A stretch of DNA of 64,000 bases from Ophelia neglecta (lineage: Eukaryota): NCBI GenBank assembly GCA_965285935.1, contig OZ260663.1, positions 20,956,001-21,020,000 of the forward strand. The letters run 5' to 3'. Made by a program: the position numbers and the translations under genes. This document shows positions 1 to 17,319 of the stretch, piece by piece (positions within the stretch are counted from its first letter, which is position 1; every line of letters starts with the position of its first letter). The notes below the pieces were generated by a model, which was given only the letters and a program-made list of their open reading frames with translations, did not search any database and was not told the origin of the DNA.

Positions 1-2666
1 ATTGTATTATCTTTACATACTCACAGCAGTGTCCCTATCTAAGTCACTCAAGATAAGGCCTTAGGATTTTGAAGAAATTGTATAAACAGAATAAACACCT
101 ACAATAGGCAGGAGTAGGCAAAATATTTGTTTATTTTCATAGTAAGATTATTTACAATTATAATAATGGGGCTTGATATTTGTTGACCTGCAGTTGTGGT
201 TTTTAGCGAAGATTTAATCGATCATTCCTGATCAAATATTTTTTGTATTTTCTGCCAGGCATCCACTCCCATGTTTGTTTAGATTGTACGTCCCTATAAC
301 TATCTACCTATAAAACGTTCTATGGTTTGTGCCGAGATCTAGGTACAAAATGTCTGGTGTGCACAAGTAAGCCTAAGTCATAACGGGTTGGGGGACCGTT
401 TTATGTTTCCAATCCTACGAACGAAATGGAATATGCGTACATTTATTTTAAACTTCTTTAAGAGCTAATAATAGTTGGATACATAGTTCTAGGAGAGTGA
501 GTAGAATTTGTCACTTAAATGAAAATGGCAAGTTGAAAGTACACGTGCAGAAAGGTGTTCCTTAGCTGTTTGAAGTTATGCGCTGCACTGCAAGATCTAG
601 CCGTAGTGGCGTGCACCAGGCACTCAATATCACGTTAATAAGTGTAGAGTTGTCGCTGGTTTGTTCGAGTTGCAGCGTCATGCAGAGGGGCGTCAAAAAC
701 AGGCAATCGACCGTTGGAAGTAAGAGATTTTCGCTTTCAGTGCTAAAGATAAATATTTAAAGCAAAACCAATTGTTGAGTCTGGTTCTAAAAAAAAAACA
801 AGTTTGTTAGTTAAAAGCAGTCAGACATAGCTGTCGTATTAAAGCGTAACTTACAACACTTCAAGTTGGAAGGGAATCTCCTCTTATAAATGCTTTCGCA
901 AATAAATATATCGCATGTCGCGGTGACTATCTTAAGACCGACCTATCACACGATTCCTCATAATAAACCATTGATTGGTGGGTGTGGTATTTTGTGTCTG
1001 AACACCGTGCATACGCTCAGATAAGTCCAGGCCAACCACATCACTGCACTCTGGTAGCACATGTACTGCTCGACTTAAGAACCTCCTGAAAAAGAAACCA
1101 GTAGCTTTGACTGATCAAGAAGTGGTCGGTTGATGCCCTGTCACATATAACTATAACCTTTAACTTATTATAAATTCAATAAATATAAAAAAACATTATT
1201 TGATAAAACCTTACACCTAACTCTCGACGATTGTGCAGCCGCTAAGGATCACGCCGCTTTAACAGGCATACAGCACATTTGGTAGCAGTCATATCACTGG
1301 TTCTTTATGATCGGGACTGCGATTAATTTCTTTTCAACTTTGCCTAAGGTAAAACTTTACGGAGCATAATGCAATATTAACAATTTTTACTATATTCATG
1401 TGTGATGGAGAAAAAACCGTCTATACGAATGTAGAACTCTGTGCATGCATAAAAATACACGTTGCAAAGGTTCGCACTCGGCTTGGCCGATGTGGATTGT
1501 CAGTCGATTGGACTTGGCATGTAAAAGTTCATTTTGACTGGGTGCCGCAGGTTTCAATGTTTTAAATGATCTAGATGTACGTTATCGATGTACAGGTAAA
1601 CTTTCTGTGTTTCTGTCGGATATCCATCCTTATTAATTATTAACAATGGTCATTGGGCATACAATGGTGCAGTGTCAGATCCGCTACTATTTTTCATCGC
1701 AGCATGTATGTCTGGTCACAACTAATGGCATACAAGCAGCAGCAATGCAACAATAAGGAAACATCGATTTATTAAGTATATAAAAACATCACAAATGATG
1801 TACCTTATTATTATAAAGGTAAAAACACGGAAGCTTATATATCCTTAGAAGGTCTTCGTCTAATTATAGTACGATGTACAAATATCAGATCCCGTAGACG
1901 TTTTTAATCTCAATTTCTTTGTTATAATACTTCTGATTTTCGAGTGTGTTGCCTTTCTCTATGTACACAAAATATGTTATCATTATAACATCCGAATATT
2001 TTCAACTAATAAAATAAAACAGGATTCTGCACTCAACCATCCCTCAGTGTCAGGTGGGGCCCAGCGTATATCAAAGGGGCAATTGACATGTTTCCTATTG
2101 CAAGTGAAATCAAATTTATGTTTTTGCAGTATATTAACTTTTTGATAGGTTTGAAATAATGTAGTGGTGTGTGGGGGATTTAGGTTGCTAATTTCTGATG
2201 ATTTCGAACCAATTAATGAACTATGATTGATTACTGGTGTCCAGTCCCGATTGTTTAAAACCGCAGCACAGTGTCGAATCCGGACACATTCCATTTACTT
2301 AAATAAATGCCACAGGAAAACTGGTGAAGAATGTTGCCTGTGCAAGGTTGGCAATGCTTTCAAACCAAAAACGCAGATTAAAAGTATCCTCTTTGGTTAA
2401 TTTTAAACACAGCCACTTGCTCCAATAACATCAAATGAAGTGTTTGAGTACAGCAGTGTAGTGATTTTAATTGTTTTATGTGTGGCATTCCATCACATGC
2501 GTTGGCTTTGAAATAGTCATGCTGGTTTTCGTTCTCCACTTGACACTTGTATTTCCGCCGATCGGAATCTTAAAACGAATAGTTTACTCTTAATCTCTTT
2601 ATTATATATGTTTAAAGCCCATTGATCAAGGCTAATAAATACCAGTTCCGTTTTATCTTTCAACAG

Positions 2667-3568
2667 GCTTAGCGGAAAGCTCCCGTCTGAGATTAAACTT
2701 TCGGTTACCTAGGGACTACACAGATATTGATGTGGCGACATTGTCTCGCGTGGAAATGGCATTCGTAAAAAAAACAGGAACAAATCATTTTCACGAGTCC
2801 ATGGATCGACTGAACATAGAGGTGATGTCAGTGCATCGGAAATTGGCCTCTTTCAAACGCCATCGGAAGGTCGTTACTGCGCATGGTCGGTGGGATGTTG
2901 TTGACGTCACTACCCTTATGAAATCGGTTATTTTAGGCAGCGACGACGATGACCACGTGAAAATCGTTTCCGCATCAATAAGTCACAAGGGCGGAATTCC
3001 TTTAAGGCAAATCTATCACGTGGCCTCGGAGGATTCCACACGACGTCCTCTGCTTGTGTTCTACTTTAACATTGCACAGGGCATGGACCACAGGCTGCTG
3101 CCATCTAGCGGAGAAGACGCGAAAGAACGTTATCGCCGCTCACTGAGCGACTTGACACCAATGCCTGCCTCTAGCCTATCGATTTTTACTACTACCACTG
3201 TAAGGCCCTCCACGGAACCCCATGTTCACACGGATGAAGAGATCTGTACACTGCATCGCTGGTATTTAGACTTCCGGCAGATGGGCTGGAACTCTTGGAT
3301 AATTGGACCGGAAGGCTTTACTGCCAACTATTGCTACGGCAAGTGCTTTGCCCCACTTCTCCGTGACACCTTGAACACTTCTAACCATGCTTTCATCAAA
3401 AGTATGTATCGCGCGACGGTAGGGCTCCATCTGACTCAGCATATCCCCGGGGCGGTGTGCGCGCCCATTAAGCTGAGCGCTATCAGCATGCTGTATATTA
3501 ATAAAGCAGGGGAGAACGTGTTAGTTGACATGCCGGAAATGGTCGCTGACAAGTGCGGCTGTCTCTAG
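2667..3568 (+). CDS. Terminal coding exon of a TGF-beta superfamily ligand (BMP/GDF-like): C-terminal prodomain plus mature domain
   Basis: Acceptor ttttatctttcaacag ends at 2666 (phase 1). The frame reads LAESSRLRLNFRLPRDYTDIDVATLSRVEMAF (prodomain-like), then PLLVFY and a furin site RYRR at 3128-3139. The cystine-knot domain reads CTLHRWYLDFRQMGWNSWIIGPEGFTANYCYGKC...NHA...VCAPIKLSAISMLY...MVADKCGCL, with stop TAG at 3566-3568. No signal-peptide exon was identified in the window. Confidence 0.95.
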
Positions 3569-6500
3569 ACATATATCGAATGACCTGTGTCGTCCTTACA
3601 CCTGTCTGAACTACCATACCTAGCATTACGCCACGTAGCACTACCTCCTCATAGCTTCGTAGTTCAATGACCGATCCCTGTAGAATCACTAACTACCTGA
3701 AACAAATTTACCTTGTTATTGAGGTGAGGCTGAGAGCTAGGCATGTGACTCAGTTAGCATGGTTTTTTTTTTTCAAACCGAAACTAAATTCAGTAACATT
3801 GAAACCGCCACTATTATCTAGACCATACAGTCGGTAAATGCATCTATACTGTATATTCTGCATCCTAGTCATTCCCTCCGAATACCACGCATTCATAGAT
3901 GTGTTTTGCAGAGATTATTTATTACACGACTTACCAATAAATATGCAAACAAGCTGTGGGTCAAAATGAAATGTGAATATAGAGAAAAAAGGAGGCGGTG
4001 ACACAGGAACATTATATCCTTTACAAGTGTCGACAGAACTTTTTTATCTTGATTATTTGGTGATCTTTGATAATTGCGTTTGGCCATCTGTTAATGACCT
4101 ATGACCCGTTCTGACATGCATGAAAAAAATACAAACGACGATAATTGGATTAGCTCTCCAAGTTTACAATTTACATAGTGTATATGGTACATATAAATAC
4201 ATATATAAATATATTATGCCTACCTTTTATATACCCAAATTTAGTATATCTAATAATATATATGTTGGTGGAATAATTAATCTTCATATAATTTCCGCCT
4301 TATCTATGGAGAAAGAGAGATCAGTTTCATCAAACAAATAAACACCCGTATTGGTATAAGTTAAAAGACTTGTTGAGCAAAGATCAGATAAGTTATAGTA
4401 AATTGGAACAGGTATTTGCCATAAACCAATGTGTACGTTATACATCGACTTGTCTTATATAAGTGGTATAAGAATGACACATCTCCATAACTAAGTACGA
4501 ATCGGGTGCTCTTTAGCGTTTTAGAAAAAGGGCACCCTAAGAGCGATTATCAGAGTCCTTTGCTTATTCAAAGATGGTTGTGGACTTGGCAGGGAGATGA
4601 ACTAACAGCCCTTGCGGTACCACCACCTAGAAATACGATCCAAACACCTCTACCATCGTACTACAGTCCCACCCCCATTATTAGTTTGGCTTACGAAGAT
4701 TATTTTGCTAACTACCCCGGTCTACTAACCGCAAGCACAAATGACAATTAACAGATGTGCATCCTTAAAAAGGAATAGCATTATTTCAGTCAATTGTTTG
4801 TCCGTCCACCTACATAAGAAAACATTAGGATTGCCTTACTCTGTAATCTTTGCCTGCACATACTCGCCTATGGATATCAGGTACCATACCATGTTGCATC
4901 AATAAATTGACAACGTCACGTAGTTTTTAAAAAAGTTTCCAATTTGTTTTTGTTTGTTTCAGGTTGTGCATACAATTATATATTTGTTTTCTTACAGTAT
5001 CTTCATATATTGCTCTAATACTTCATTTTCGAATACAAGAATATTATACAATCCAACCATATCCAGTTCTTTACACCTATGATATTTCTTGTATCATTTG
5101 TATCAATATTAGTAATAATTATATTAAAATAAGTTGATAGCTGTGAACTTAATGACACCTCCCAGGTCAATTTGCTCATCTCTGATTAAACTAATAATAG
5201 CTATTCAATGTCCACAAAGAGGGATATTATTTGGTTATCAGGCTCTTTTGGTAGAATCAGCCGAACTATCCTGTTGTTAAATTAGCCCATTGCAACTATC
5301 GATTTAAAAACTATAAATAAAGCAGAGCATCGAAAATTTACCCAAAGACACACTGGAGCAACAACGTCGTGATAAGGCTTTCTGAAACTTTGGTGCTCCA
5401 CTTAGGCTTTGGTGTCTGCTTAAAACTACACTTGATGTTGGATCAACTTATTTAACAATTATTAATTGCAAATACATCGCTGTGATATATTAATGTTCGG
5501 CACATTCTGTCAAAGTGGAAATCATAATGTTCGTCGCGGATTTGTAAATAAACGGGTGTAGGCACTCGATTGACAAATACAAATCGGTGTCCCAGAATAG
5601 TTCAGTAATCGGTCCACCATGGCCAGGTTTAGGGATTAGACCGCGCTATTATGTATTCCCATTGATCAGGTTTCAGCTTAAGATTGGCTCAGTTTAAGAC
5701 CAAATCCAGCTCTCAGAAACCGAATAAGCAAGATTAAGCACTTATCCTTATTTTACTCTGGTTAGGAGTTAAGATTCCTTTTGAGAAATGGGGCACTGGT
5801 TAGACCAAAAGCCGTCCAGGACCTGCTAAATACCAACCAGAATTATAAAACGGTAAATGAACTTTATAGGAAATTAAGTCGAATAAGATTATTAAAATCA
5901 ACAACAACCGACCCTCATTTTCATTTGCATAATTAACTTATAATATCAAGCATTATCTTACGTGATTTATAACGAAATCGGGACGGCGCGCTCATATGCA
6001 GTGATGACGTTATACCTCCTCGTATTTATTTGGCCCAAGGGTGATGCCCCTTCTGTGAACAATGAGGTTCTCAATGGCACCTGCAGTGCTTCGATGGTAA
6101 GATTCCGTTGCTGTGGTTGCCGCGAAGCCATTGCTACCCTTTTCCCACTAACATGTCAGTTTATGGTAAAAGCGTAAAAACATTGCAAACAGCGTGTCAG
6201 ACTAACTTTACACAATCTACAAATTATAAGTGAAGCGAATTCTTATTCTTTCAGGCCACCATCACTGAATCATAAATAAATTAATGATGTTTTCTATGTA
6301 TACACCAAAAGTGATTAATGGACCCACAGGGTCTACTCCATATATCTGTTTTATATAAGTTTCGCAAAAAGGTCGTGATCACTATAACATGCGGCTTAAT
6401 TTGGACGATATTTCAGTGTTTAACATTCATGTCGTATCTAGCTTAGTATTTCATTTTGGACACAACTGATAGCATTTGTTAGTGCGGGAATGTTAATGAA

Positions 6501-11652: not shown

Positions 11653-12199
11653 TTGGAATACTATATTGATAGTCTTATGCATAACTGTTTAATGCATCAT
11701 TGTCTTGTTGATGTACCTTTGAATTTTCTAGCCTCCATGTATATAAGAGAACAATGTTATTAAGAAAATAACCCTGTCTACCCTAATCTAGCCTCACGCC
11801 GAATACTGTGGACGCCAGAGCACTGCATGGCGCCTAGCAAACAGCCCAGCCACACAGGTTACCAATGTGCTTCGAGTTCACTAGACCGTGACGATTTAAG
11901 GCAAGCGCGGGTCAAAAACAATAACCTAGCCATATTATGTTAGGTCAATACTATAGTTGTGCAATATCAGACCTAAAATTTGCCATGGCACTATGGTCAA
12001 TTATTGTTGGATTGTCGACATGTTGGCATGGTTCATACTAGAAACGCTCTGTTCCGAAGTAAGGCATTCTTAACTTTTATGCGCGATATGTAAAAACTAG
12101 AGGGAATACCATAAGAAAGTGTGCACGCCCTTGCACCGAAACAAGCCAAGTCAGTCTAGAGGAATTCCTGAGGATATCGATAATTAAAAGCTGTGAAGA

Positions 12200-13294
12200 A
12201 TGAGGAACACAGAACAAAGGTGGATCATATTAACTTTCACCGTGGGTATTCTTATGTGTCAAATGCTGTTGTTGAACCATTCCGATTTGAAGACCACCTA
12301 TCTACGAACAGAGCCAGGGGTTATTGAAGATACCGACCAGGTGCCGTCTTCTAAGGACACTAGAAAGGAAATTAAGACTGAAGCTGATCGTAATATAAGT
12401 GGCTTAAATAAACCACCTGTAGTCAGTCCATTTGTCTGGAAATTTCTCGTTTTACCTAAGGATCCGTGTCCGGCGCAAGAAACAATTCATTTATTATGCA
12501 TTGTCCCTACGGATCCATTCAAATATCAAGCAAGGATGAACATACGAACTACATGGGGAGCTTCTGCTAACTATAAGTGGTTAAATGTGACCGTAAAAAC
12601 TTTGTTTGTTATGGGCGTACCGCAAAGAGTAAACCAAACCCTGGTTGATGGCCTCCGGTGGGAACTTGAAACTTTCCAGGATATCATAATCGGCAATTTT
12701 GTTGACGATTATTACAACCTTACGACCAAAATGAGGGTTGCTTTCCGGTACGCGTCTCAACATTGTGCACATGCGCTCTATACTCTAAAGATTGACGACG
12801 ATGTTTTGCTGGATGTGTTTCAAATTTTCAAATATTTGCATTTATTTCTGAGGAAATCAAACTTTATTGCATGTCACGCACTGTATGATAAGCCAGTTTT
12901 AAGAGATCCATCTTTAAAATGGTATATTTCCGAGTCACAATACCCTGAACCCACGTACCCACCATATTGCAATGGACCGATGTATCTGATGCCCAGAGGC
13001 ATGCCGTCTGCTATTGATGACTATGCTGCCTACGTCAAGCCCTTCCCGTTAGAGGACGTCAATTTTACCGGCTTAGTGAGAGAAGCCATCGGGGGTATAA
13101 CTCTTTATAATATGAAACACCACACTATTTTGTGGGAGGAAAAGAAAGTACGCTTCCTGCCGGAGGAGATGTTGGTACGGTCTCTCGCCACCCACAGGAT
13201 AAGCGAAGAAAAGTTCTTCAAAATATGGAAGAAGAAAAAGTCTATCTTTTTAAATAAAATGGCCATGGTACAAGTGTCTAAGGTTAATGGCTAA
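12200..13294 (+). CDS. Intronless glycosyltransferase family 31 (beta-1,3-galactosyltransferase / B3GALT1/5-like), type II Golgi membrane protein, 364 aa
   Basis: N-terminal TM anchor WIILTFTVGILMCQMLLL followed by a stem region. GT31 motifs: R..IRTTWG, DIIIGNFVDDYYNLTTK, KIDDDV (DxD), YPPYCNGPMY, PLEDVNFTG. Acceptor specificity cannot be read from the sequence. Confidence 0.95.
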   Translation: MRNTEQRWIILTFTVGILMCQMLLLNHSDLKTTYLRTEPGVIEDTDQVPSSKDTRKEIKTEADRNISGLNKPPVVSPFVWKFLVLPKDPCPAQETIHLLCIVPTDPFKYQARMNIRTTWGASANYKWLNVTVKTLFVMGVPQRVNQTLVDGLRWELETFQDIIIGNFVDDYYNLTTKMRVAFRYASQHCAHALYTLKIDDDVLLDVFQIFKYLHLFLRKSNFIACHALYDKPVLRDPSLKWYISESQYPEPTYPPYCNGPMYLMPRGMPSAIDDYAAYVKPFPLEDVNFTGLVREAIGGITLYNMKHHTILWEEKKVRFLPEEMLVRSLATHRISEEKFFKIWKKKKSIFLNKMAMVQVSKVNG

Positions 13295-13720: not shown

Positions 13721-14000
13721 GAAAATGCATATGATAATAATTAAACTGCAATTAATTACAACTCCCATGGTAAGAGATTCACACATTGTTTACTGCTGTA
13801 ACATTGCATTTCATTTACAAACTGTGAAAGTAAGATGACACACAAATTGCTAAAATATCCATTAGAAAATATAAATATGATTATATTAAACTGCAATTAA
13901 TTACAAGTCCCCTGGTCAGAGAACCACACAATGGCTACTATTGCGACATTGCAATTCATAAACAAAATGTCATAAACAAGATGACACACAAGTTGCTGAT
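13721..14000. repeat. Diverged tandem duplication of about 145 bp
   Basis: Shared blocks ATTAAACTGCAATTAATTACAA, ACATTGCA and AAGATGACACACAA in 13721-13856 and 13865-14000. Confidence 0.85.
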
Positions 14001-14971
14001 GTAATAGGCATATAAGACCCAATAATATAACTTGCACATTACCAAACCAGACTTATCTGTTATAATACAAAGTATAAATATATTCAAATGATTAAATAAT
14101 TAAGAACTAAATTATATAGCTGGACTGCCTTGTAACCGCTTTTGTCTTTTTTTGTCCACTAGCTGGCACTACTTGTCAGTGCTGGAGATGCATACAATAA
14201 TGTGATGGCATCGATATCGCCCTCTTGGCCAGGTTCAATGTACAGATATTACACAGCCTTCATCACTGAAATCCAGCTGGAATTAAACATTTAGTTCAAC
14301 AAAAAGACTCCCATGTATTTGGGATTAGCCTTGTGAAAATAGACAGATGACAACACAATGAACACTGGATGAATATATATAAATATTTAACTGTCAGTTT
14401 ACTGGTCGTAGGCTTTGTCAACGGTCAATATCGACAAGCTTTATAAAGGCTGCATCAGTATTTGCCATGACTATTGTTATTTTGTCCATAAAATGAATAA
14501 TTACATGACTTGCACAGTCCTAATACACCTCTATTACTGATCCGAATCAAAAATCTGCCGTGTGGCGGACGGGCGATAATATGGGTGATTTATAGGTTCT
14601 TGCGCATACAGTTCGACAGACTTATATTTATTTCTAAATGTTCTTCATGCTGGTTTTGACACGAGGTGATACGTTACAACACGAACCATCACAGGTAAAT
14701 TTTGCTAGGACTTTCTGGACTTGTTCGCGGTTTCCCTTTCTTAATGAGTTTTCTTCGCCGGACAAGAACGAACGCCGCTATAGTGTCGATAATACAGTAT
14801 ATCCTACAACTATGAAAAAATCGCGCTATTTGTAGAAATTGTTTAGTATGTATTTTATGCATTCATTCATATTTTTCTATATAGAGTGCATCATAATATA
14901 TAAGAATATTGTCTAAAAAGAATTCTTTAATATTAATCTGTGCATATTTCAATCTGATCCCATCATTGGTC

Positions 14972-15810
14972 TGTCCCTTATTCCGTCACGCATCCCACCA
15001 TTATACTACATTCATCACGATATCATTTCCCGTATCCAGTCCCTTTTTCCGACTCATATCCTATCATTACCGCATAAAACCCATATCATTTTCTTCATGC
15101 TGTCCCTTTTTTGGTCACACATCTTATCATTTCCACAATAATTTTCCTTATACCGCTCCTTATTCCGTCACGCAACCATCATCACGACACCCATACCCAA
15201 AGCTATTTCCTTATCCCTTCCCTTATTTAATCGCTCATCGTCTTATACCGCGTTCTTACCCTATCATTTTCCTTATCCAGTCCCTTATTCCGTACCACAT
15301 TTTATTATTACGACATACACTCCCTTTTCCCGTCCCTTTGTTTCGTTAAGCATCCTATAATTACTACATCCATGCCCAAAGCATTTCCTTTATCCCTTCT
15401 CTTTTTTCGTCACCTATTCTTATCACATTCGTACCTATATTATTTCCCTAATCTTCCACTTATTCTTTCACGCATCCCATCATTATCATATTTATACTCA
15501 TATCCTTTCCTTGAACCCGTCCCTTTTTCTGTCTCTCATCCTACCATTCCCACATCCATTCCTACAACCATTCCCTTATCCCGTCACGTATCTTTTATCA
15601 TTACTCTACCACTCATATAGCCACGTATTGTGCTGACCAATCCCTTGTTCGGTCACGCAATCAGTCATTACGATATCCTTGCACATCAGGTCCCTTGTTC
15701 CTTATTGTGTCACGTATCTTTCCCATCAACCCGTCCATTCCAGTGCCCGCCCCGTTCTTTTTTATGTCACTTATCTTTTTCATTAACCCGTCCGTTCCGG
15801 TACCCCATCA
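14972..15810. repeat. Degenerate pyrimidine-rich minisatellite, about 14 units of 52-66 bp
   Basis: Recurrent GTCCCTTATTCCGTCACGCATCCTATCATT...CATTTCCTTATCC-like unit starting near 14972, 15038, 15101, 15154, 15217, 15278, 15331, 15395, 15453, 15518, 15570, 15639, 15697 and 15752. Confidence 0.85.
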
Positions 15811-17319
15811 AACACTTTTTTCTGCTTATATGGCCGACACACAATTTTTTCCAAAGTCTTCACCCTAAAGCAGTCACGATGACACTATTACTGCTTTATC
15901 GAATAAAAATTAATTCAACGAATTTTTGTTTGTCCAAGATAAAATTAGGAGTGCAACTTTTGGTCTCAGGCGGCGTTCTTAGCTTAAATCTCATATTTTA
16001 GGTGTTTTCATCAGCGCTGGCCAGCTGATAAACGATACGCCATAGGTCGCAGTTTTTGACTCATCGCCTTCAAGCTCTCTGAGGATCTGCATGTCCTCGA
16101 TCCCCAGGGGTATATAGTTTTTGATGACATTCGCACCGGAATTTACTATTTATCGATGTAAAATTCATTTTCTTTTCGGAAAAACGCTGCAAAAACGAAA
16201 TTTCTTTTTCGGAAAAACGCTGCCAAAACGACAAGCTACAGCACTCACCAAGCAGACCTTTCTTGGCTCTTCTGGATTCTGTTATAAAAGATATCAATCG
16301 TTGTATGAAAAAGTCATTTCCTGTTTCAAAGTTTGTGTGTTGTATTTTAGGAACCAATTGTCGAAGCGACTTCCAGTAAAAATCAAATTGGACGCCTAGG
16401 TAAGCGAACCAACATGCTATAACGTTACTCTTATGCGCATCCGCAAACTTATATTATTGAGGCATGCGTAGCACCAAATTAAAATATTGCAGATTCAGTA
16501 CAGTTCTTTGAATGACTGTGGCGAAATTGTGTCTGCATCCTCCTTTTGGACAATTTGAAGCAAGTTTCCGCCTGGTTCAGACGTTTTTCATTTTTAGATA
16601 TACCACACATGTGTACCGGATGCTATCACGTGACAACTTTTTGACCTAGTGGTGTAATGTGTTATCAAAATGGTGTCCAGTCATTGTTTTGTCGAATGAT
16701 ATAAGCATATGTACTCAAGCTTTAAGAAAACGGGGTTAGCGATGGTACCGGTTGGTTCACGTTTTCGAGGTTATAACAGCTAAACGTCTGCTATTCCGCT
16801 TCAGTACAAATGACAACGCCTATGTGACGTATCCTGTCGAGTGGCCAATATTATATTTACCTATATGAAACCTTCCGCGTTGAATTAACTATATAATTTG
16901 CTATTTTTCTGCTTCAATGTTATTTAAGGGTTGAGTGTTAGTCAGTTTTTACTTAACGGGTATTCTATTACCCGAACGATGAAGGGCGATTTTACAAGGA
17001 AGAACCTTCATGTCTTTAACCTGTCTAGTGCACGATATTATGTCTAGTTATTTAATATTACGCCATAATGGAAGTCCAATCGTTGTTCTATCAAAATGCA
17101 TGCAAATCTTGTCATTAAGTCGAACGTTTACTTGGTTGGCGATTGTCCTTTTCACTCGCCTTTTTTAGCGTATAGTTAAAAGTCTGAAGAGATAACAAGT
17201 TATTTAACCTGTCACTGGGCAAATATAACATCTACGGACATACAGTTTTCAACATGATATTAATTATATGATTTGCTTTTTTTCGTATGCAACAACATAG
17301 GCCGGGACTTTACTGAGTG

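Follow-up and report, generated by a model that had tools for sequence, protein, structure and literature searches.

The window analysed here, i.e. the whole stretch of 64,000 nucleotides from Ophelia neglecta, carries a gene for a divergent BMP-like ligand of the TGF-beta family in which a Val codon stands in place of the cysteine that would link the two subunits. The gene is intact and under strong purifying selection. Judging from its mature domain, it is likely a member of an old bilaterian subfamily, most of which is unnamed. We give a rough probability of 0.55 to the reading that its product is a secreted, furin-cut, six-cysteine BMP-like agonist, predicted to form a non-covalent dimer, to use type II receptors with a shifted preference for type I receptors, and to swap subunits with a paralog.

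Gene structure and the interchain position

The TGF-beta domain lies at the end of an open frame of 309 codons (2639-3568, + strand) and matches Pfam TGF_beta (PF00019) with an E value of 8e-26. A search of the genome (762 Mb, 223 contigs) revealed two further copies with open frames, at C2:89.86 Mb (Val at the interchain position, GTA) and C5:18.56 Mb (Arg, AGG). By its DNA likeness to both paralogs, exon 1 was located outside the window, about 2 kb upstream (G000:C5:20,954,004-20,954,310, 102 codons). It codes for a signal peptide and the first prodomain helix; the leader has a mean hydropathy of 2.5 over 9 residues (a hydropathy measure, with no SignalP run), and the match to Pfam TGFb_propeptide was weak (E = 0.0027, below the cut-off). 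Predicted splicing gives a two-exon gene and a putative precursor of 402 aa with a hydrophobic leader, a prodomain, a furin site, a Ser/Thr/Pro-rich extension and the knot. The single intron (4,356 bp, phase 1, GT-AG, GTAAGT...TTCAACAG) has an identical position in all three genomic copies. The features within the window are as follows, with the basis of each in brackets.

1..2666, +, 3' part of the intron (exon 1 located by paralog likeness; joined frame open for 402 aa)
2667..3568, +, exon 2 (paralog comparison, open frame)
2667..3139, +, prodomain part of exon 2, free of cysteines (open frame; modelled as a beta-rich arm domain; fold matches include pro-TGF-beta1)
3128..3139, +, furin-type site RYRR (sequence; putative cleavage)
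3140..3244, +, N-terminal extension (35 aa) of the mature peptide, rich in Ser, Thr and Pro (sequence; pLDDT <50)
3245..3568, +, cystine-knot growth-factor domain with six Cys, and stop codon (PF00019, E 8e-26; model against BMP2)
3260..3262, +, Trp208 (BMP2 Leu19), a signature residue of the group that falls in the predicted interface of the dimer (row counts, interface list)
3374..3382, +, N-glycosylation sequon N-T-S at the position of BMP2 Asn56 (sequence, alignment; putative use)
3383..3451, +, helix of the wrist (residues 249-261, including Phe252 and Tyr257), then the post-helix loop, the latter 5 residues longer (BMP2 alignment, model)
3455..3457, +, Val273 (GTG) at the interchain Cys (BMP2 Cys78) (sequence, BMP2 alignment, Logan contigs; paralogs have GTA, Val, and AGG, Arg)
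3545..3547, +, Ala303 (BMP2 Val108), a signature residue of the group that falls in the predicted interface of the dimer (row counts, interface list)
3936..3941, +, candidate polyadenylation signal AATAAA (sequence only)

The product is recognisable as a TGF-beta ligand by its six-Cys knot together with the hydrophobic leader and RYRR, the propeptide match being weak. Both Arg positions of the furin-type site are kept in at least 90% of 31 aligned relatives. The N-terminal extension is the fastest-diverging part between the paralogs; it is predicted to be disordered and is possibly O-glycosylated.

The codon GTG (Val273) at 3455-3457 (+) is in frame and lies immediately 5' of TGC (Cys, 3458-3460). 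It aligns to BMP2 Cys78, the first C of the CC pair and the interchain cysteine. The knot cysteines (residues 203, 232, 236, 274, 306 and 308 in exon-2 frame numbering) are intact and follow the pattern of six intrachain cysteines, C, CxGxC, C, CxC. These six are the only cysteines of the 402-aa precursor. Therefore, no substitute interchain bond is possible. Logan contigs of three runs showed no alternative letters at 3455-3456. The sole variant at 3457 was G>A in one contig of one run, giving GTA, which also encodes Val and is the codon of the paralog on C2. The three runs stem from a single sample of one study; the assembly may have been made from them, and they are not independent. Sequencing error was ruled out as the origin of the Val, as a Cys codon was absent from the contigs and the paralog keeps Val through the change from GTG to GTA. 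The earlier note had described a Val codon for the dimer cysteine beside six intact knot cysteines, which the codon, the BMP2 alignment and the paralogs bear out; the TGY codon that it asked to be looked for at 3455 was absent from the contigs of these three runs (one sample).

Compared with the C2 paralog, the knot has 27 synonymous and 4 non-synonymous differences (dS 0.51, dN 0.016, dN/dS about 0.03), and the last 91 codons have 22 synonymous differences and no amino-acid change. The prodomain diverges faster (dN/dS about 0.4-0.45 against the same paralog). Gene conversion was considered as a source of the near-identical knots and was ruled out, with dS at 0.46 in the last 91 codons and 0.52-0.63 in the rest of the gene. 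Synonymous divergence is thus alike across the gene, indicating that the knot is kept by purifying selection and not by gene conversion. Among the three copies dS ranges from 0.5 to 0.9, and whole-gene dS for the older duplication is about 0.8-0.9. Since all three copies lack the cysteine, its loss is older than the older duplication.

DNA likeness between the paralogous loci was limited to the exons and short flanks in the microsynteny comparison. A 160-bp stretch about 600 bp past the stop codon (window 4192-4352) has 71% identity with sequence some 2.2 kb beyond the C2 paralog, and is either a shared regulatory element or a repeat. The next gene downstream is a single-exon galactosyltransferase (window 12197-13294, +; Pfam Galactosyl_T, E 5e-36). 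It is followed at 14000-16000 by a pyrimidine-rich low-complexity stretch with a GC skew of -0.32, which is a source of spurious open frames.

Relatives of the ligand and the repertoire of the genome

A full HMMER scan returned 2,227 proteins at E <=0.001. The best 150 of them were aligned with the ligands of the same genome and the first cluster members (162 distinct mature domains). The top matches, among these best 150 of 2,227, were unnamed proteins sharing the helix motif of the window gene, and not BMP2/4. The highest-ranking match was an annelid protein, from which the source animal would likely be a spiralian. FastTree placed the gene in a group of 35 rows with a support of 84, or 33 rows after removal of two near-duplicates. 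The interchain cysteine was absent in 22 of the 33 group rows but in only 8 of the 127 other rows, and in 19 of the 30 group members from other sources (all among the 162 aligned domains). Of 30 proteins looked up, 29 of them from the group, five carried an organism name. The annelid Ridgeia piscesae (KAK2178947.1, 'hypothetical') and the brachiopod Lingula anatina (XP_013394129.1, automatically named 'GDF3-like') have His at the position and Octopus sinensis (XP_036355991.1, 'BMP4-like') has Phe. The amphioxus Branchiostoma lanceolatum (XP_066297780.1, 'BMP8A-like') and the centipede Strigamia maritima (T1J1K9) differ from the window gene in retaining the cysteine. All five share with it the tree group and the Trp/Ala signature. 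The automatic names of the group point to four different families, none of which is supported by the tree. The earlier note had taken the gene for a lineage-specific ligand. This is not supported, given the two paralogs without the cysteine and the 19 of 30 outside members, including those of an annelid, a brachiopod and a cephalopod: as the cysteine is missing in many relatives, the ligand type is not lineage-specific.

The group has a characteristic set of residues. Trp208 is present in 32 of the 33 group rows (1/127 of the others), Ala303 in 31/33 (10/127), an aromatic residue at 257 in 30/33 (6/127) and one at 252 in 27/33 (10/127). The window gene has all five signature residues (Trp208, Asn230, aromatic 252, aromatic 257 and Ala303). 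However, these counts are partly circular: resemblance to the query decided which matches were taken, and the group was defined on the very columns that were counted. Trp208 also occurs in members with the cysteine. Therefore, the signature permits the loss of the cysteine and does not predict it. Among the best 150 of 2,227 matches, the closest outside knot (P0005, 54% identical) keeps the cysteine, and a protein of the Ridgeia cluster (51% identical) lacks it; the latter also shares the spacing of 37 residues between Cys3 and Cys5 and a similar post-helix loop.

Word-index protein searches returned 1, 0 and 3 matches, and as such searches are nearly blind to this family these numbers are no evidence of rarity. 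An Atlas search with the Ridgeia homologue retrieved generic TGF-beta/BMP clusters only. The second structure match of the Ridgeia protein was a BMP15 cluster (TM 0.64), a weak lead.

Maximum-likelihood trees set the gene apart from the known ligand families. In the LG+G4 tree (65 rows, cysteine column left out), 28 canonical rows lay on one side of a branch at 83/93, with the group and four further rows on the other. On this tree 2 changes were needed for the group, which formed one clade in only 46% of bootstrap trees, and the test of a single clade did not reject it (p-AU 0.446). The mixture-model tree was built on about 106 columns, with five long or partial rows removed, one of them from the group. 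Here the 32 group rows formed one side of a branch at 83/83, a moderate, unstarred value with the bootstrap not fully settled, which separates them from BMP2/4, BMP5-8, Nodal, ADMP, BMP3 and GDF3/Vg1. In the mature-domain trees the window gene groups with none of Nodal, ADMP, BMP3, Maverick and myostatin; the reference ligands of the same genome in these trees are presumably what their family motifs suggested by eye. The view of the earlier note that this is a divergent BMP-like ligand thus agrees with the trees, which place it outside the canonical groups. The BMP2/4 and BMP5-8 of the same genome are 37-39% identical to the knot and lie in other well-supported branches.

The state of the cysteine required 7 changes on the tree, which does not settle the sister of the three copies in this genome. 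One starred trio carries Ser, Cys and Tyr at the interchain position, indicating that this residue is labile. From these sequences, the loss seen here would be either shared with relatives or one of several parallel losses. Mammalian rows of the P0024 group, which we take to be GDF3-like, have Val at the same position and 48% knot identity. Orthology to GDF3 through this common Val was nevertheless ruled out by the tree, in which the GDF3-like rows join the Vg1-like rows at 99/94, away from the window gene.

The rest of the ligand repertoire, named by eye from motifs, presumably comprises BMP2/4, BMP5-8, ADMP, BMP3, BMP10-like, Maverick, myostatin, activin/inhibin-like and Nodal genes. No Lefty- or Univin-like gene was found among the 51 family matches in the genome (scored candidates). 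A tandem array (G000:C1:128,523,590-128,681,006; L010-L030, L047) holds 29 near-full ligand domains and one partial domain, which we take to be Nodal-like from their motifs and tree grouping. Its unit of about 5.0 kb includes both exons, some blocks are inverted, and mean identity among 21 copies compared is 99.3%. The contig depth of one Nodal unit was 560-780 against 23-27 for the window gene in runs X1 and X2, and about 270 against 11 in X3, i.e. roughly at least 24-fold. Although this depth gives no exact copy number, it is in keeping with a genuine amplification. One more Nodal, a single gene apart from the array, is located at C8:55.76 Mb.

Several other loci showed unusual arrangements. 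A BMP5-8-like gene (G000:C12:16,053,101-16,054,418; L008, L009, L046) has two distinct last exons, separated by 1 kb, each encoding most of a mature domain; these are possibly alternative terminal exons yielding two ligands from one prodomain. Another BMP5-8-like gene has a 454-codon open frame, is possibly intronless or a retrocopy, and lies 150 kb from Maverick (G000:C5:75,704,800-75,856,987; L005, L038). Two activin/inhibin-beta-like genes lie in opposite orientation about 23 kb apart (G000:C5:47,255,734-47,279,750; L041, L045). On C2, a myostatin-like gene is 41 kb from a very divergent activin/inhibin-like ligand with a long branch (G000:C2:39,860,550-39,902,149; L039, L040), and another divergent ligand, its gene split by an intron, is located at C2:80.44 Mb (L044).

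Dimer interface, receptor sites and alternative readings

The AlphaFold model of the knot (pLDDT 76-95) superposes on BMP2 with a TM score of 0.89-0.90 by target length and an rmsd of 1.6 Å. The best solved-structure matches are BMP2/4 and BMP5-8 (E 5e-25, about 41% identity, rmsd 1.6 Å), which share the residues of the type II epitope and differ in having seven cysteines. The spacing from Cys3 to Cys5 of the knot is 37 residues, compared with 31 in a fish BMP4 and 32 in the BMP2/4 of the same genome. In the alignment with BMP2, one extra residue falls in the pre-helix loop and five come after the helix. The modelled wrist helix itself (residues 249-261, 13 aa, high pLDDT) is no longer than that of BMP2, which we take to span about residues 59-71. 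The earlier note had the helix/wrist region several residues longer than in BMP2/4; this holds for the total spacing and not for the helix, as the additions are in the loops. Spacing among relatives ranges from 29 to 45, and therefore the longer loop of the window gene is not special.

When two copies of residues 200-309 were folded together, the score was 0.79 in three of three runs against 0.01 for the best control, with contacts in 100% agreement and pLDDT of at least 88. In calibration, 17 of 29 eukaryotic single-chain pairs (7/16 from animals) attained this mark, and none of 30 single chains did. It was reached by only one of seven eukaryotic pairs without an older solved relative, and the pass of the homodimer may be memory, because BMP dimers have been solved many times over. 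The modelled interface is of the usual helix-on-fingers type and includes Trp208, Tyr257, Val273 and Ala303. A non-covalent dimer, which the earlier note had named as likely alongside a monomer, is thus the best model of the ligand, bearing in mind that its score may partly reflect remembered structures.

By alignment with BMP2, the residues that we take to form the type II knuckle match (Pro35, Ser88, Leu90 and Leu100), and the presumed type I wrist carries changes (Phe49>Ala, an insertion of one residue, Ile62>Phe and Tyr103>Met). Equivalents of BMP2 Leu51, Asp53, Trp28, Trp31 and Met106 are retained.

These features suggest the following mechanism. Two large residues, Trp208 and Tyr257, would together with the small Ala303 enlarge the hydrophobic two-fold interface, and the enlarged interface would make the interchain disulfide dispensable. 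Such dispensability could explain why the bond was repeatedly lost or changed in the group and rarely outside it. Without the bond, the ligand could trade subunits with its paralog of 96% identity, in the manner of GDF9 and BMP15. The kept knuckle would allow signalling through type II receptors, and the changed wrist may alter the preference for type I receptors. By analogy, our guess is that the role of the ligand is local, probably adult and possibly gonadal.

The protein might instead be a ligand-type antagonist, which would fill type II receptors through its intact knuckle without recruiting type I receptors and so damp BMP or Nodal/activin signals. BMP3, inhibin, GDF3 and Lefty act in this way. 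Here the type II residues are preserved and the type I wrist carries four changes; such a remodelled site fits an antagonist as well as an agonist. Several six-Cys vertebrate ligands are antagonists or co-ligands (Lefty as a Nodal antagonist, in passages of PMC4729200). The genome has no Lefty-like gene among the 51 scored matches, and Nodal is massively amplified. However, Lefty is not known to have a wrist helix between Cys3 and Cys5 of the knot, whereas the window gene has a modelled helix of 13 residues and keeps the NHA motif together with the five retained BMP2 equivalents. Moreover, the wrist changes are common to the group and therefore suggest a different receptor fit rather than decay. 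We consider an antagonist unlikely.

It is quite unlikely, in our estimation, that the protein acts mainly as the heterodimer partner of a canonical ligand such as BMP2/4, BMP5-8 or Nodal. Vg1/GDF3 pairs with Nodal, the mammalian GDF3-like rows have the identical Val, and a free interface would permit subunit exchange; a TIG-2/TIG-3 heterodimer has been proposed in the available part of PMC11210861. On the other hand, the Trp, Tyr and Ala changes lie on both sides of the two-fold interface and fit pairing of like with like, the homodimer appears to model well, and the GDF3/Vg1 rows are elsewhere in the tree.

A monomer would agree with the absence of an interchain cysteine from the whole precursor. 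It is improbable given that the hydrophobic face for dimerisation is retained and has even gained bulk, that the predicted homodimer passes the mark, and that the six-Cys GDF9 and BMP15 are stable dimers according to passages of PMC11210861. A decaying duplicate or an assembly error with a meaningless Val, to which the presence of three copies and the faster divergence of the prodomains (dN/dS about 0.4-0.45) might point, is highly improbable in view of three open frames, a knot dN/dS of about 0.03, a Val kept through GTG and GTA, and contigs free of a Cys codon.

Known six-cysteine ligands and implications

Six-Cys invertebrate ligands as such are already published. Loss of the dimer cysteine is described for Lefty, GDF3, GDF9 and BMP15 in passages of PMC4564238. 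Parts of PMC11210861 report that TIG-2 and TIG-3 of C. elegans are six-Cys ligands with Lys at the dimer position, that TIG-2 was modelled as a butterfly homodimer, and that GDF9 and BMP15, with Ser at the position, form dimers that are stable in the absence of the bond and can swap subunits. TIG-2 and TIG-3 thus resemble the window gene in being invertebrate ligands without the dimer cysteine. They differ in the Lys and in being nematode genes, one BMP-like and one activin-like, that act in immunity, and they are absent from the tree here. GDF9 and BMP15 likewise lack the interchain cysteine and form non-covalent dimers, shown for them and modelled here; they differ in having Ser where the window gene has Val, and the amphioxus member of the group keeps Cys. 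Neither was recognised by name among the matches or found among the 60 PDB matches listed. PMC4729200 describes Lefty as a Nodal antagonist and regards both Lefty and Univin/Vg1 as innovations of the deuterostomes. For Strigamia, the genome paper speaks of 'two divergent BMP sequences' (passage of PMC4244043).

A gonadal connection comes from the oyster, in which a TGF-beta-like gene marks follicle and Sertoli-type niche cells of the gonad (in part of PMC10987912) and a gonad-specific TGF-beta-like factor (Fleury et al. 2008, Gene 410:187) is cited in passages of PMC3191543 and PMC3958495. The window gene and this factor, compared by description only, are both divergent spiralian TGF-beta ligands. 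The oyster og-TGFbeta-like protein of that 2008 report is said to have six of the seven cysteines. Should it belong to the group, a described six-Cys member from the gonad would already exist.

The group is named nowhere in the available passages of PMC5979292, PMC13121700, PMC7418201, PMC7522025, PMC11994790, PMC4729200 and bioRxiv preprints, and XP_013394129 is absent from three supplementary files of the Lingula 2026 paper. Within the literature searched, no publication describing the group was found; the likeliest places for such a description are Kenny et al. (2014) and the 2008 report by Fleury et al. It may well be that a six-Cys ortholog has already been described, which would remove the novelty claimed in the earlier note.

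A broader reading, which we offer as tentative and regard as doubtful, is that the group is an overlooked ancient bilaterian subfamily (annelids, brachiopods, cephalopods, myriapods and amphioxus), dispersed among incorrect automatic names, in which an aromatic dimer interface arose that made the disulfide unnecessary, the bond then being lost repeatedly. In invertebrates it would correspond to GDF9/BMP15 and to the gonadal TGF-beta of the oyster, a non-covalent, subunit-swapping gonadal signal predating the split of protostomes and deuterostomes and triplicated here for cumulin-like heterodimers of paralogs.

As a single six-Cys ligand the gene is of modest interest, the type being known in vertebrates and nematodes; the oyster reportedly has it as well. 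The greater interest lies in the group, which spans at least three protostome phyla and amphioxus under four different automatic names. Its labile dimer cysteine, missing in 22 of the 33 aligned group rows, provides a natural series on what makes an interchain disulfide dispensable. If the group is orthologous to GDF9/BMP15 or to the oyster gonadal factor, gonadal TGF-beta signalling would date back to the bilaterian ancestor, and the ligand would be a candidate regulator of fecundity in farmed invertebrates.
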